Source of the DNA: Escherichia phage vB_EcoM_DE16
Strand: one strand, 5' to 3'
Sequence record: OP595145.1
Length of the DNA: 64,000 nucleotides
Positions 44,404-59,384 of this stretch are shown here, piece after piece. Below the pieces are notes generated by a model. That model worked only from the letters and a program-made list of their open reading frames with translations. It was not told where the DNA came from and ran no database searches. Positions within the stretch are counted from its first letter, which is position 1. The number at the start of each line of letters is the position of its first letter. The translations under genes were made by a program, and so were the position numbers.

Positions 44404-45363
44404 TTAGATTCCAATGATAGTTGCTGCTCGTTTATCCTTGGATCTGGTGTTTGCTCTACTACGTGACAAACCTCCGCAAGATTCACAACGAATAATATCG
44501 AAAGAACTTACCGCAGTGTGGTATTGTTTACCAGTAACAACGTGAACGTGATCACTGCCACAACGAGAACAACGGACCTTCTCATCTGGGTAATAAGCGG
44601 ATAAGTTAGGATGCTGTGGAATCCACGGAAGGATTTTCATATACAAATCACGGAGTGAAACAACATCGCCATCATTGTAAATCTGCATACGTTCAAAAGC
44701 ATCACGATCACCTTCACAACATGCTTTCCATAAAGGGAACCCCTCGTTATCCAGTTTTTCACTTTCTGTTTCGAAATATGCTCCCATTTCTTTAAGGGAG
44801 TTGGAAGGAAGTGCAAATTGTTTCTTAGCTGCCTTCAATGTATCAACAACTACATAATTAGAAGGAGGAGCCATATCGTGATATGCAAATCGTTGGTTAA
44901 TGTATGCACGGTCAAACTTATACCCGTTGTGTGCCACAACTACATCTGCCTCATTCAGAAGGTTCCAAAGATCTTGGCAAAGCTCCCAATCATCTGTATG
45001 ATCAATATCAAAAAGAGGATAAGAAGACAAATTCTTACCTTCCACTTCACCAGTATACAGATCAGCAGAAGAATAAGATAACAAATAACCTCTGCGAATT
45101 ACCTGGTCTGGAGAAATGAAGGCTTTGAATCGACGGAAAGTATATGCAATCTCTGGTGCAGTTTCAACATCAATAATTTTAATAACTGGTTGTTTCTTTT
45201 TAACTGATTCTTGTTTACTTCCACTGAAACGTGCAAGGAAATCATTCACTGTGCTTTTTCTTGTTGGGCTACCTAAAACAATTGCTGCAATATTGCGAGA
45301 AGACATACCCTCTGCACTCATACTAAGGATATCTGCTTTCTGCTCTTCTGTTAATCTGCTCAC
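44404..45363 (-). CDS. DnaQ-like DEDD 3-prime-5-prime exonuclease with N-terminal HTH-like region and C-terminal Cys cluster
   Basis: IDVETA (Exo I), VAHNGYKFD (Exo II), YNDGDV (Exo III); CSRCG ... CESCG. Confidence 0.65.
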   Translation of the reverse strand: MSRLTEEQKADILSMSAEGMSSRNIAAIVLGSPTRKSTVNDFLARFSGSKQESVKKKQPVIKIIDVETAPEIAYTFRRFKAFISPDQVIRRGYLLSYSSADLYTGEVEGKNLSSYPLFDIDHTDDWELCQDLWNLLNEADVVVAHNGYKFDRAYINQRFAYHDMAPPSNYVVVDTLKAAKKQFALPSNSLKEMGAYFETESEKLDNEGFPLWKACCEGDRDAFERMQIYNDGDVVSLRDLYMKILPWIPQHPNLSAYYPDEKVRCSRCGSDHVHVVTGKQYHTAVSSFDIIRCESCGGLSRSRANTRSKDKRAATIIGI

Positions 45364-56570: not shown

Positions 56571-56819
56571 ATGTCTCTATTAGAAAAACACGTGTTTGAA
56601 GATGGTAACGGCAATGCAGTTTTTCTTTTCCATCCAGAAAAATACACATCTGAAAACAATGGTACAACTTCTATTGTAATCACTAAAGATGTTAAAGTTA
56701 TTGATTTCTTGGCTCTAATGCGAGAGATGGATCTTGAAATTAATACTTTTAACGCAGAAGCTTTGGTTGTTGCTCTTCTGGAAAAGAAAGATAGTGAAGA
56801 AGTAGCAGAATATGCTTAA
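56571..56819 (+). CDS. hypothetical protein (82 aa)
   Basis: ATG 56571 preceded by TTAGGAGG. Confidence 0.55.
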   Translation: MSLLEKHVFEDGNGNAVFLFHPEKYTSENNGTTSIVITKDVKVIDFLALMREMDLEINTFNAEALVVALLEKKDSEEVAEYA

Positions 56820-56825
56820 ATAACT

Positions 56826-56855
56826 ATTGACAAACGTATCCTTCATATGTTAGGA
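56826..56855 (+). promoter_or_regulatory. promoter AACTATTGACA-N18-TAGGAT with overlapping inverted repeat GTATCCT ... AGGATAC
   Basis: perfect -35; upstream motif recurs at 57415 and 58570. Confidence 0.5.
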
Positions 56856-57065
56856 TACGTTCATCAAGTGTGGTAAGAGGGTCGTTGACTTTTGTTAAGA
56901 TGGGCTTGCACTGCGGTAGTGTTAGAGACTACTTCTTCAGAGGTTAGCTACCAAAGAGGAAAAGGAATAGTCTCGGCTCAAGAACTTTTACGCTGAAAGT
57001 TGGGCTTGGTCTTAGAGAATGTAGCGGTTCTCTACAATCGTCAGCGTCTCTGTTACCACATTTAT

Positions 57066-57140
57066 GGCCCTGTAGCTCAATGGGAGAGCTGTCGGCTCAT
57101 AACCGATAGGTAGCTGGATCGAAACCAGCCAGGGCCACCA
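57066..57140 (+). tRNA. tRNA-Met/Ile2 (anticodon CAT)
   Basis: full cloverleaf: acceptor GGCCCTG/CAGGGCC, loop CTCATAA, encoded CCA; resembles lysidine-type Ile tRNA. Confidence 0.8.
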
Positions 57141-57142
57141 AC

Positions 57143-57217
57143 GTCTTTATGGTGTAATGGATAGCACAGGAGTCTTCTAAACTCTTAGTCAAGGTTCGAT
57201 TCCTTGTAAAGACACCA
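57143..57217 (+). tRNA. tRNA-Arg (anticodon TCT)
   Basis: acceptor GTCTTTA/TAAAGAC, anticodon loop CTTCTAA, T-loop TTCGATT, CCA. Confidence 0.8.
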
Positions 57218-57414
57218 GAATATTTTAACATGAATTAGCTCAAGTGATTTGAACCCCACTACTGATCATGGTGGCAGAGAATGAGGCAAGTATGTCAGAC
57301 ATTATAAACAAAGGCCACGGTTATATTAGAAGACATAGACGCTCGAAGAGCACCGTTCGTGGAGAACGGGGGTTGGTGGAGTCACCATTCATGGTAAAAT
57401 GTTTTAAAAAACTA

Positions 57415-57444
57415 TTGACAACAAACATTATTTTATGTTAGATT
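57415..57444 (+). promoter_or_regulatory. promoter AACTATTGACA-N18-TAGATT
   Basis: same conserved -35 context as 56826 and 58570. Confidence 0.45.
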
Positions 57445-57452
57445 ATAAGTAT

Positions 57453-57543
57453 GGAAGGGCAAATCGACGTGGCGACGAAAACGGTCTTGAAAACCGCCGA
57501 GCTTGAAAGAGCCTTGGGAGTTCGACTCTCCCTCCTTCCGCCA
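57453..57543 (+). tRNA. tRNA-Ser (anticodon TGA), type II
   Basis: acceptor GGAAGGG/TCCTTCC, loop CTTGAAA, long variable arm, T-loop TTCGACT, CCA. Confidence 0.7.
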
Positions 57544-57548
57544 GATTA

Positions 57549-57634
57549 GGTAGATTGGTGAAATGGTAGCCACAACAGTTTGCTAAACTGTAGTCGGAAA
57601 CGGCGTGTAGGTTCGAGTCCTACATCTACCGCCA
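57549..57634 (+). tRNA. tRNA-Ser (anticodon GCT), type II
   Basis: acceptor GGTAGAT/ATCTACC, loop TTGCTAA, long variable arm, CCA. Confidence 0.75.
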
Positions 57635-57764
57635 AGTTCTTTTTAATATAGCTTACTTTAATAGAGTAAACTTTCGGCAGATGGCCTCCACCATCTTACC
57701 GATACTTCATAGTTAGTGGTGCGAACACTGGCTATTTTAAAAAGAATTTAAATACTAGCATTTA

Positions 57765-57852
57765 GGTGAGTTAATTCCGTAGGGGTAGCGGGGCAGACTG
57801 TAAATCTGTTATCATTGCGATTCGGGTGGTTCGACTCCATCACTCACCACCA
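57765..57852 (+). tRNA. tRNA-Tyr (anticodon GTA), type II
   Basis: acceptor GGTGAGT/ACTCACC, anticodon arm GCAGA-CTGTAAA-TCTGT, CCA. Confidence 0.75.
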
Positions 57853-57858
57853 AATTAA

Positions 57859-57944
57859 GATGAGTTGGCTGAATGGTTTAAGCGGCGGACTGTTAATCCG
57901 TGTTCGAAAGAACGATATAGGTTCAAATCCTATACTCATCGCCA
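57859..57944 (+). tRNA. tRNA-Asn-like (anticodon GTT) with atypical 15-nt variable arm
   Basis: anticodon arm GCGGA-CTGTTAA-TCCGT matches Asn tRNAs, but GTTC-GAAA-GAAC hairpin inserted in variable region. Confidence 0.5.
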
Positions 57945-57951
57945 GAATTAT

Positions 57952-58028
57952 GGACTTGTAGAGTTAAGGTAAACCCCCAGTCGCCAAGAGGCTTCTGGAA
58001 TTGCAGGTATCGAATCCTGCCGAGTCCC
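57952..58028 (+). other. degenerate tRNA-like element
   Basis: 7-bp acceptor pairing and T-arm GCAGG ... CCTGC with 8-nt loop, but no canonical anticodon arm. Confidence 0.3.
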
Positions 58029-58034
58029 AGCTTT

Positions 58035-58109
58035 GCTCCTATAGTATAATGGCTATTACAACGGTTTTGTAATCCGTGGATCTCTGTTCGATTCAGAGTG
58101 GGAGCACCA
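58035..58109 (+). tRNA. tRNA-Thr (anticodon TGT)
   Basis: acceptor GCTCCTA/TGGGAGC, loop TTTGTAA, T-arm CTCTG-TTCGATT-CAGAG, CCA. Confidence 0.75.
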
Positions 58110-58569
58110 ACATAACAGGTAAGAACATTTAGGCTACTGAGAAATCATCCGAGGCAATCAGACCTATCTTCTGTTAAGTGTTCTTATCGTTGTGAAGAAA
58201 GCAAACTTATTGAATGTAAGCGGACGAAAGACATTCACTAACCTGTAGTAAGGTCGAGCCAAAGCGCGGTAATGAGTTCCGAGGTTAGTATTCACAACAC
58301 AACATTAAGAGCACTGTGATTGATCGTCGTATCCTGTGCACAAGGTCTGCTCGAAAGACAGTGTTCTTAGTATTGTGTTGATCACAAAAAGAGTTACCTG
58401 AAACTTGACCGGAGTAGGGTTGGATGGGGCAAAAGAAGAAGCGGCTCTCCCATCGACAGCAACGAAGAATAATATTTGACTTTGGTTTTGTATTATTTTA
58501 AGTTAGCTTACCGAACGTAGGGCTAGTCACCCAATGGGATACTCGTCACTGTCCCACTCAATAAAACTA

Positions 58570-58599
58570 TTGACAACCAATAGTAAAATGTAGTATAGT
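58570..58599 (+). promoter_or_regulatory. promoter AACTATTGACA-N18-TATAGT
   Basis: perfect -35 and 5/6 -10, just upstream of tRNA-Gly. Confidence 0.55.
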
Positions 58600-58610
58600 A
58601 AAGATGTAGG

Positions 58611-58684
58611 GCGTTCTTGGTGTAGCGGTAGCATTCCGTCCTTCCAAGTCGGCGGCACGAGTTCGATCCTCGTAGAACGCTCCA
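58611..58684 (+). tRNA. tRNA-Gly (anticodon TCC)
   Basis: acceptor GCGTTCT/AGAACGC, loop CTTCCAA, T-arm ACGAG-TTCGATC-CTCGT, CCA. Confidence 0.7.
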
Positions 58685-58782
58685 AATTATTTAATAAAGG
58701 GTTGCCAGAAAACTTTCTCTTTTACTCATGGTTTTCTCCTTCTCTCACACCTCTTCTGGTTGCCCTTCATTAAATGATTTAT

Positions 58783-58858
58783 TGGTTTGTAGTGTAGTCA
58801 GGTAGCACACGACACTTTGACTGTCGTAGGTTTGGTTCAAATCCAGACAGACCAGCCA
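58783..58858 (+). tRNA. tRNA-Gln (anticodon TTG)
   Basis: U1-A72 acceptor TGGTTTG/CAGACCA, anticodon arm CGACA-CTTTGAC-TGTCG, discriminator G, CCA. Confidence 0.8.
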
Positions 58859-58863
58859 TATAA

Positions 58864-58940
58864 CGGAATTTAGCTCAGTTTGGTAGAGTGTACGCTTTGG
58901 GAGCGTATTGTCGCAGGTTCGAATCCTGCAATTCCGACCA
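58864..58940 (+). tRNA. tRNA-Pro (anticodon TGG)
   Basis: acceptor CGGAATT/AATTCCG, anticodon arm TACGC-TTTGGGA-GCGTA, CCA. Confidence 0.8.
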
Positions 58941-58946
58941 ATTAAA

Positions 58947-59020
58947 TGTTTCGTAGTTCAATGGTAGAACCCACGACTGATAATCGTGAGACACAAGTTC
59001 GATTCTTGTCGAAACAACCA
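58947..59020 (+). tRNA. tRNA-Ile (anticodon GAT)
   Basis: acceptor TGTTTCG/CGAAACA, D-stem GTTC/GAAC, anticodon arm CACGA-CTGATAA-TCGTG, CCA. Confidence 0.75.
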
Positions 59021-59022
59021 GT

Positions 59023-59092
59023 TTCCCGTTAGACTTACAGGATAAGAGTTCCACAGCTTATTGTGATGCTGGTTCGAATCCAGCACGGGATA
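59023..59092 (+). other. degenerate tRNA-like element
   Basis: canonical T-arm GCTGG-TTCGAAT-CCAGC and acceptor pairing but no canonical anticodon arm; too short for full cloverleaf. Confidence 0.3.
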
Positions 59093-59098
59093 CCTAAT

Positions 59099-59177
59099 AG
59101 CGGGATAGAGGAGTCTGGTCGTCCTCGCCAGTTTCATATGCTGGAGATCATTGGTTCAAATCCAATTCCCGCCTCCA
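59099..59177 (+). tRNA. tRNA-Met (anticodon CAT), 1-72 mismatch
   Basis: D-stem GAGG/CCTC, anticodon arm CCAGT-TTCATAT-GCTGG, T-arm ATTGG-TTCAAAT-CCAAT, CCA; A1 opposite C72. Confidence 0.65.
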
Positions 59178-59292
59178 AATATCGCTTGCCAGCGGTATCT
59201 TTGAAGACCTTGCCTGGTTCCTTCTAAGATGGAGGGGTGCGACTCCTTAACGCACAATTATAATAAAGCATTTCAAATTAACAGTATTTATT

Positions 59293-59316
59293 AGCCTCCT
59301 TATTGGAGGCTTTTTG
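59293..59316 (+). terminator. Rho-independent terminator (AGCCTCC-TTAT-GGAGGCT-TTTTT)
   Basis: perfect 7-bp stem plus T run after tRNA array. Confidence 0.75.
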
Positions 59317-59334
59317 CTATCTATTGAATAAAAC

Positions 59335-59363
59335 TTGACTTATTATTTTTTATATGTTAAGAT
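59335..59363 (+). promoter_or_regulatory. sigma70-like promoter (TTGACT, 17 nt, TAAGAT)
   Basis: upstream of 59385 gene. Confidence 0.45.
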
Positions 59364-59384
59364 AAAGTTTAGGAGGATTTTATT

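Follow-up and report, generated by a model that had tools for sequence, protein, structure and literature searches.

Phage tRNA regions and lambdoid late leaders are usually regarded as tRNAs plus filler. What such filler consists of is the question raised by positions 58110-58560 of a 64,000-nucleotide (nt) stretch of Escherichia phage vB_EcoM_DE16 (sequence record OP595145.1; hereafter, the window), a spacer between the tRNA-Thr and tRNA-Gly genes of a tRNA array. The interval contains neither a tRNA (ARAGORN, Rfam) nor an open reading frame (ORF) of 60 amino acids or more, the longest being 43 amino acids (58164-58295, minus strand), and the initial annotation had proposed a single structured non-coding RNA transcribed with the tRNAs. 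Structured RNA inside the tRNA transcription unit is supported by folding, by covariation and by the absence of an intervening plus-strand terminator. The interval is not one RNA, however, but a mosaic of at least four independently evolving modules, of which 185 nt are an insertion without counterpart in most relatives. Hairpins of one kind, termed H, and a second element, termed module C, are two unannotated and widely shared phage RNA families, with members in phages lambda and T4.

The two H hairpins of the window, A and B, and the insertion are placed as follows.

58110-58294, plus strand: insertion of 185 nt comprising hairpin A and module C, with CAACA repeats at its flanks, inside H-type 5' arms
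58111-58194, plus strand: hairpin A, an H-family unit starting 1 nt after the CCA of tRNA-Thr
58111-58130, plus strand: 5' arm of hairpin A, CAUAACAGGUAAGAACAUUU
58131-58175, plus strand: apical cargo of hairpin A
58176-58194, plus strand: 3' arm of hairpin A, AAGUGUUCUUAUCGUUGUG
58295-58380, plus strand: hairpin B, also of the H family but lacking the bulged A, with arms at 58295-58317 and 58358-58380

The complementary segments that had been pointed out in this spacer do exist, but their partners had been assigned slightly differently. In hairpin A, GGTAAGAACAT (58118-58128) pairs with the nearer GTGTTCTTA (58178-58186). A second copy of GTGTTCTTA (58361-58369) is the 3' arm of hairpin B, whose base is formed by CAACACAAC and GUUGUGUUG. 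In the interior of hairpin B, CTGCTCGAAAGACAG (58347-58361) forms a GAAA-capped mini-hairpin, and a CCUG..CAAGG hairpin is also present in the cargo. Both units fold better on the plus (tRNA) strand: hairpin A reaches -24 kcal/mol (z = -3.2) compared with -14.9 (z = -0.6) on the minus strand, and hairpin B reaches -33.8 kcal/mol (z = -4.75) compared with -25.9.

Both hairpins belong to a family in which the arms CACAACAGGUAAGAGCA / UGCUCUUUCCGUUGUG surround a variable apical cargo, with the consensus 5'-CACAACAGGUAAGAGCAYUG-(25-130 nt)-CAGUGCUCUUUCCGUUGUG-3'. Membership was defined by the 5' arm CACAACA-GGUAAGAGCA and the complementary 3' arm UGCUCUUUCC-GUUGUG, and units were retrieved with arm patterns allowing at most two mismatches per arm. 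In the stem of about 20 base pairs (bp), the arms and a bulged A are conserved and a U.U mismatch lies inside; an exchangeable structured cargo caps the stem. When the 64-kb window was searched with the 3'-arm pattern, seven matches were found against 1.7 expected, and the top three all lie at hairpins A and B. Hairpin A departs from the arm pattern by two mismatches in the 5' arm and none in the 3' arm; hairpin B has two mismatches in the 3' arm, and its 5' arm (CACAACAUUAAGAGCA) is one nt shorter. The bulged A is retained in hairpin A, where U-A replaces the mismatch, while hairpin B has neither feature and has a C.A mismatch instead.

The stems of 99 distinct units were aligned (first 23 and last 22 nt, joined artificially by GAAA). 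Standard pairs fill 86.7% of the cells, compared with 33-54% when the partner is slid by one to three columns. Changes on both sides occur at 14 of the 22 stem pairs, for example from G-C to U-A in 21 units and from A-U to C-G or G-C in 28, and the covariation score is 0.227 (0.05-0.09 in slid controls, 0.107 in shuffles). A7 of the arm is bulged almost without exception, and 73 of the 99 units have no pair at position 10/41. The arms are 93.5% paired on the given strand and 89.8% on the opposite strand, with three times as many G.U pairs (106 versus 37). Wherever a tRNA is found in the same locus, the H unit lies on the tRNA strand (24/24), as do hairpins A and B, and several units begin no more than 2 nt from the tRNA. 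The H stem is selected as an RNA structure.

Pairing potential is likewise kept among the relatives of the window phage, with compensatory changes in hairpin A, the cargo of hairpin B, the closing helix of module C and a further hairpin at 58423-58454. In hairpin A, the stem segment GAACA/UGUUC corresponds to GAGCA/UGCUC, GGGUA/UGUCC or GGGCA/UGCCC in relatives. Hairpin B is almost unchanging across phapecoctaviruses.

Prophages of Enterobacterales carry H units, as do phages of the N4-, T1-, Taipei- and SSU5-like groups. When viral contigs were scanned with the arm pattern, at least 120 loci had H-arm matches. Among the 120 matches listed when one genome per species was scanned, 58 were complete hairpins and the others were chance 5'-arm matches; the named taxa among those 58 are nearly all Enterobacterales, including Kosakonia, Serratia, Yersinia, Pantoea, Klebsiella, Kluyvera, Pectobacterium and Erwinia. 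No H units were found in 933W, FV3, the K-12 DLP12 prophage or the T4 regions examined. The Rfam scan suggested by the initial annotation (Rfam 15 covariance models, E<=1) returned no family at 58110-58610, nor at the copies of H or C in ten other loci, where only tRNAs and weak noise appeared. No literature was found on the H arm or module C core sequences, and a search for surveys of phage non-coding RNA motifs gave nothing relevant.

A canonical H unit is present in lambda itself, at 44,787-44,862, directly 3' of the 6S RNA terminator tR' and overlapping the annotated orf-64. Its arms, bulged A and mismatch are those of the family, and it carries no annotation in NC_001416 or J02459. In CUS-3, HK629, HK75 and lambdoid prophages, the H unit lies between Q and the holin gene (S), just past the first terminator that follows the late promoter, and the unit of lambda recurs in virulent T1-like phages as well as in phages of Klebsiella and Salmonella. 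The lambda late-leader hairpin is homologous to those of the window, having in common with them the family arms and a place in a long untranslated RNA. The window units differ in that they lie in the tRNA operon of a virulent myovirus and bear other cargoes; in addition, hairpin B is without the bulge and hairpin A has the centre AACA/UGUU. RNase III processing sites were reportedly mapped in vivo in the Q-dependent late leader of lambda (Daniels et al. 1988, Virology 167:568).

The 'boundary sequences' of CUS-3 were considered as H units and rejected, since bsq4 merely adjoins the hairpin and is a different thing. A further common module, GUGAAURCGCAGGCUGAUGCG, lies 3' of the H unit in CUS-3, Taipeivirus T751 and Gamaleyavirus nithesis (locus L148, 2578-2600; loci L004 and L005, about 1586-1610). 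Around this module, Taipeivirus T751 has about 2.6 kb without annotated genes.

The second family, module C, lies between the two hairpins.

58212-58288, plus strand: module C
58212-58236, plus strand: variable hairpin GAAUGU/ACAUUC
58237-58277, plus strand: conserved core, ACUAACCUGUAGUAAGGUCGAGCCAAAGCGCGGUAAUGAGU
58282-58288, plus strand: distal AGGUUAG, complementary to CUAACCU

The core of about 40 nt (CYAACCUGUARNAAGGUCGAGCCNAAGNGCGGUAAUGRG) is matched in 756 phage records, and its carriers include T4, many T4-likes, rv5-likes, Pylasvirus and T1-like contigs. The module is always oriented with local transcription, and in one 118-kb contig it is flanked by promoter-like sequences. The order H-C-H seen in the window recurs in Pylas, KpCHEMY26 and T1-like contigs. 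The RNAalifold fold has a 3-bp closing helix (N-C-Y with R-G-U) around the invariant mini-hairpins ACCU/AGGU and GCC/GGU, with 98% of cells paired compared with 14-47% in slid controls. The closing helix covaries (C-G 11, U-A 6 and A-U 1 at one pair; C-G 17 and G-C 1 at another), and the upstream hairpin shows the compensated forms GAAUG/CAUUC, GAGUG/CACUC, GGGAA/UUCCC and GGAAC/GUUCC. Taken alone, the module C of the window is of ordinary stability (z +0.3). No consistent outer helix was found, as lineages pair AACCUG(UA) in different registers and clean covariation is confined to the 3-bp closing helix. Pfam and PHROGs searches on the genes downstream of module C gave no functional hint.

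The T4 copy of module C falls within the vs.8 ORF as annotated, between denV and the conserved vs.8 start, and is on the transcribed strand. Its position is about 64,825-64,944 on the minus strand (locus L012, 3326-3445), and T4-like genomes begin the vs.8 ORF further downstream (ATGAGAACATTTTTAACTGG). Because the T4-likes annotate this later start, the start given for T4 vs.8 is probably wrong and conceals a conserved element that is non-coding. A 45-kb viral contig (L151, 788-980) has module C twice, in tandem and diverged. Weak, sub-threshold Rfam matches to permuted transfer-messenger RNA (tmRNA) were obtained at L011 2460-2547, L007 1145-1254 and L019 1737-1844 (34, 27 and 26 bits; gathering score 47); these loci are ORF-poor arrays that also carry H units and module C.

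How did hairpin A and module C come to lie here? In phAPEC8, EF1-1 and phiWec181, hairpin B follows tRNA-Thr directly, so 58110-58294 is an insertion. The full insert was found elsewhere only in SF1-1, PsgM04F, phiWec188 and phiWec190 among the phage records searched. Its left junction is CACCA|ACAUAACAGG and its right junction UUCA|CAACACAACAUU, both within the CA-rich 5' arms of hairpins, as would be expected of recombination between those arms.

The interval can also be placed within the transcription of the array, whose features are listed here.

57066-59177, plus strand: tRNA array (ARAGORN)
58035-58109, plus strand: tRNA-Thr(UGU) with encoded CCA (ARAGORN; Rfam tRNA, 59.5 bits)
58570-58599, plus strand: sigma70-like promoter of tRNA-Gly and the downstream tRNAs (TTGACA-18-TATAGT, 11/12 match), the 3' boundary of the finding
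58611-58684, plus strand: tRNA-Gly, the next tRNA in the array (ARAGORN, with nothing between Thr and Gly)
56864-57065: spacer domain, -72 kcal/mol, z -4.6
57218-57404: spacer domain, -51 kcal/mol, z -3.0
57634-57750: spacer domain, -36 kcal/mol, z -5.75
58684-58782: spacer domain, -26 kcal/mol, z -6.3

The next promoter does lie at the 3' end of the interval, as first annotated. A promoter scan places the sigma70-like promoters of the array at 56827, 57415 and 58570, and the promoter module is repeated at 56816, 57404 and 58559 (repeat family D6). The array segment has its upstream promoter at 57415-57444 and a strong terminator at 59293-59311, and no terminator-like site was found between them on the plus strand; thus, 58110-58560 can be co-transcribed with the tRNAs. 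All the long spacers of the array are stem-closed domains whose base touches the neighbouring tRNAs (z -3.0 to -6.3), so that the transcript strings together tRNAs and closed RNA domains. In appearance, the hairpins are closer to processing cassettes than to small RNA (sRNA) genes standing on their own.

The reading preferred here, tentatively and at somewhat less than an even chance, is that H hairpins are co-transcribed, stem-closed processing cassettes, probably substrates of RNase III, that separate tRNAs and release small structured RNAs. The spacer would be untranslated RNA made together with the tRNAs and built from portable, independently folding modules, with the H stems acting as double-strand-specific processing signals, most likely for host RNase III. 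A cut within the stem would free the upstream tRNA with a short 3' trailer, to be trimmed by exonucleases, and would also split off the downstream RNA, so that the apical cargo and the intervening module C might be released as small structured RNAs. The conserved arms double as portable homology, and recombination within them can explain both the insertion of hairpin A with module C and the shuffling of cargoes among unrelated enterobacterial phages. The analysis demonstrates the structures with their covariation, strand bias and distribution, and the kinship with the late-leader hairpin of lambda; what we infer in this scheme is the nuclease, the cleavage, the stability of the transcripts and whatever cargo A, cargo B or module C may do.

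RNase III-type cassettes are the best-supported reading because the stems have features of RNase III substrates and RNase III reportedly processes the leader in which the lambda homologue lies. H stems measure about 20-23 bp, or about two helical turns, and the idealised Escherichia coli RNase III substrate is 22 bp (PMC3867540). Bulges and mismatches force RNase III to make single-strand cuts, leaving stabilising 3' hairpins (PMC3867540). Cleavage sites in vivo prefer WSSW (PMC6212723), which the near-invariant family centre AGCA/UGCU fits; the centres are AACA/UGUU in hairpin A and AGCA/UGUU in hairpin B.

Several points weigh against processing by RNase III. Only four to seven stem pairs are apical to the putative cleavage centre, and hairpin A has AACA/UGUU there instead of AGCA/UGCU. 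RNase III makes few demands on primary sequence, so arms as strongly conserved as these may have another, sequence-specific partner. That conservation must be read with care, since tolerating two mismatches per arm makes it partly a product of ascertainment and retrieval by pattern inflates it; pairing between independently matched arms is not forced in this way. In lambda, the late-leader RNase III sites presumably coincide with the H hairpin, an identity that we infer. Cargo A is more conserved than its stem, so the main function may reside in the cargo, outside the processing model. Finally, 99 of 123 viral-contig H units have no tRNA in the locus DNA examined, and tRNA maturation therefore cannot be the general role of H.

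A more ambitious version of the cassette scheme appears less probable. In this version, H units would be a modular cassette for sRNA expression shared by enterobacterial phages, in which a conserved excision stem bears exchangeable, host-acting cargo. Module C would be a new structured RNA class that binds a ligand or protein, is catalytic or mimics a tRNA elbow; more than 750 phage genomes would have it, among them T4, where it is hidden inside a mis-called ORF start.

The cargoes bear on a further alternative. They are very diverse, group into families of their own and are swapped between identical arms. Cargo A is essentially identical in the window phage, Taipeivirus T751, the N4-like Gamaleyavirus nithesis and the 47.6-kb Escherichia phage Bas81, but on differing stems: among cargo A units, 1 of 44 cargo columns is variable compared with 10 of 40 arm columns (p = 0.0025). 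In the Xanthomonas jumbo phage XbC2 (L279, 1191-1256), which has a non-enterobacterial host, cargo A directly follows tRNA-Tyr without canonical H arms, and its inner UGA-GAAA-UCA has become UGC-GAAA-GCA, a compensatory change. Cargo B recurs between tRNA-Thr and tRNA-Ser of E. coli phage-plasmids of about 110 kb and beside a tRNA in E. coli prophages, with the compensation CCU/AGG to CAU/AUG. T-arm-like hairpins (GGUUCGAnUCC) occur in some H cargoes (L011 2104-2195; also L033, L053, L036 and L073), and the Pylas H unit resembles a tRNA without an anticodon arm set on a 20-bp H stem.

The H stem might, then, be a mere scaffold for accessory regulatory or decoy RNAs ('RNA morons'), with the cargoes and module C acting in trans, possibly as sRNA sponges, mimics or anti-defence decoys directed at host RNAs or proteins. 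This reading is fairly unlikely. It would account for the near identity of cargo A in four unrelated phage groups while its stem drifts, for the compensated XbC2 copy after tRNA-Tyr and for the ultra-conserved module C core of 40 nt in at least six phage groups. It could also draw on CACAACA, the consensus of GcvB R1 targets, which the prophage anti-sRNA AgvB exploits (PMC4104026). A BLAST search of E. coli, however, gave homologous elements only and no antisense target, although with matches below about 24 nt beyond its detection it says little about such targets, and the H units have no terminator or Hfq-type 3' end. H shares with AgvB and AsxR, at the moron site 3' of PR' (PMC4104026), both its lambdoid genomic neighbourhood and the CACAACA motif. 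AgvB, however, is a 51-60 nt RNA with a single-stranded 5' seed and a conserved 3' domain that includes a terminator; an AgvB-type anti-sRNA was rejected, as CACAACA is locked in the stem and the interval holds no plus-strand terminator. The tight conservation of cargo A and of the module C core suggests that the released RNAs may have sequence-specific functions. Both this and action in trans are compatible with stem processing.

It is improbable that the modules are DNA-level elements, such as inverted repeats resembling miniature transposable elements (MITE-like) or recombination linkers, with no function as RNA. Such elements would fit the mosaic spread over unrelated phages, the CAACA repeats that bound the insertion within H arms and the exchange of cargoes between identical arms. 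Against this, compensatory changes keep the pairing, the G.U asymmetry and folding energies favour one strand, and orientation follows transcription in 24 of 24 cases, with no transposase or target-site duplication seen. The H arms still evidently serve as recombination homology.

Rather less probable again is the proposal that the 3' arm of H serves as a Nus-factor site resembling boxA (UGCUCUUU), enabling RNA polymerase to withstand Rho on long transcripts that go untranslated, for example those of tRNA arrays and late leaders. H units do lie in long untranslated RNAs, and the 3' arm CAGUGCUCUUUCC, with its UGCUCUU(U/A), resembles the rrn boxA, for which the published consensus is GYUCUUUAANA (PMC5725501); boxA also guards other untranslated arrays, for example CRISPR arrays (PMC7665894). 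At best, however, 7 of 11 consensus positions agree, with the AA of positions 8-9 being CC, AC or AU. The counterpart of boxA U3 (column 37) is replaced in about one third of units, the 5' arm always compensating. In addition, the motif is held in a stem (-24 to -34 kcal/mol) in which transcription reaches the 5' partner earlier. Identity with boxA was rejected on these grounds, the match in accessible RNA that defines a boxA being absent.

That the interval encodes small proteins is very improbable: short ORFs exist (the minus-strand frame of 43 amino acids, and one of 25 at 58424-58501 with GGAG upstream) and the annotation of PsgM04F has two minus-strand coding sequences here, but the 25-codon ORF has 12 codons in SF1-1 and is lost after 2 codons in PsgM04F through a 1-nt deletion, the minus-strand ORFs of PsgM04F are closed in the window, and the variable positions of module C lie 4 nt apart, not 3.

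Two further identities were considered for the spacer. A tRNA or tmRNA was rejected, since neither ARAGORN nor Rfam gave a cloverleaf. Self-cleaving ribozymes (hepatitis delta virus (HDV)-like theta, hammerhead, twister) had no Rfam match, and no hammerhead or HDV core was seen by eye, although minimal pseudoknotted ribozymes may evade both.

The remainder of the spacer, downstream of hairpin B, consists of segments of a different kind.

58381-58457, plus strand: conserved segment specific to phapecoctaviruses
58423-58454, plus strand: hairpin GAUGGGG...CUCCCAUC with an A/G-rich loop
58458-58510, plus strand: variable allele with the promoter-like TTGACT-17-TAAGTT (58476-58504), from alignment
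58511-58559, plus strand: conserved segment with alternating GGG/CCC runs directly upstream of the tRNA-Gly promoter, almost invariant in six phapecoctaviruses

A similarity search with 58381-58570 found no relatives outside phapecoctaviruses. The hairpin at 58423-58454 is doubly compensated in phiWec181, where GG has become AA on the 5' side and CC has become UU on the 3' side. At 58458-58510, unrelated sequence is present in SF1-1, PsgM04F and EF1-1 and in phiWec181, and the allele of the window is a direct repeat of the promoter region at 59326-59364 (family D5). The GGG/CCC segment may act as RNA or as DNA.

The source genome is that of a phAPEC8-like myovirus (Phapecoctavirus, Stephanstirmvirinae), and 58295-58610 matches dozens of such phages at 96-99% identity. 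The Thr-Gly spacer appears to be an insertion hot spot. In Klebsiella phage ZCKP1 (39,784-40,812), a match over about 1 kb implies some 700 bp of extra DNA in this spacer, bearing a gene for an XRE-family 'antidote' (HigA-like). Elsewhere in the array, the outermost arms of the spacer domain at 56864-57065 (56866-56900 / 57029-57063) hold GGUAAGAG / CUCUGUUACC, recalling H arms. Two tRNAs were overlooked by ARAGORN and found by Rfam: one at 57765-57849 (39 bits), which is the annotated tRNA-Tyr of phAPEC8, and a Ser-like one at 57453-57539 (37 bits with the Rfam tRNA-Sec model). Degenerate tRNA-like remnants with T-arms lie near 57951-58030, 59021-59098 and 59178-59260.

Known systems resemble the H units and module C in part. 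The PeSL mobile regulatory cassettes of T4-type phages, attributed to Arbiol et al. 2010, are reportedly short conserved stem-loop cassettes for which modular shuffling was proposed; they are promoter and stem-loop DNA cassettes upstream of ORFs, whereas H units are transcribed, cargo-bearing hairpins. T4 species 1 and 2 (rnaC/rnaD) are likewise non-tRNA RNAs within a phage tRNA cluster. The kinship with classical small stable RNAs at which the initial annotation had hinted does not hold for these two, as they have no sequence similarity to the spacer (no blastn alignment to T4 70,908-71,171), and the module C of T4 lies elsewhere, next to denV and vs.8. The early-region RNase III signals of T7 and the stalks of rRNA operons are, like H, irregular base-closed stems about 20 bp long, set along a polycistronic transcript, from which protective hairpins are left (PMC3867540). 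H units differ from these in having sequence-conserved arms, exchangeable cargo and a distribution over many phage families; the likeness is one of architecture, and no sequence similarity is claimed.

In this spacer, the presumed filler consists of conserved, covarying RNA modules that pass between phages of at least six groups and a large number of Enterobacterales prophages, and that are unannotated in lambda and T4. With two new covariance models, many spurious 'hypothetical protein' annotations would disappear. Should the H stems prove to be RNase III signals, the resolution of stem-closed spacers in phage tRNA operons would be explained, and the 1988 observation in lambda would be joined to a widespread group of hairpins. 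The cargoes or module C, provided that they act on the host, would constitute a new pool of phage accessory RNAs.
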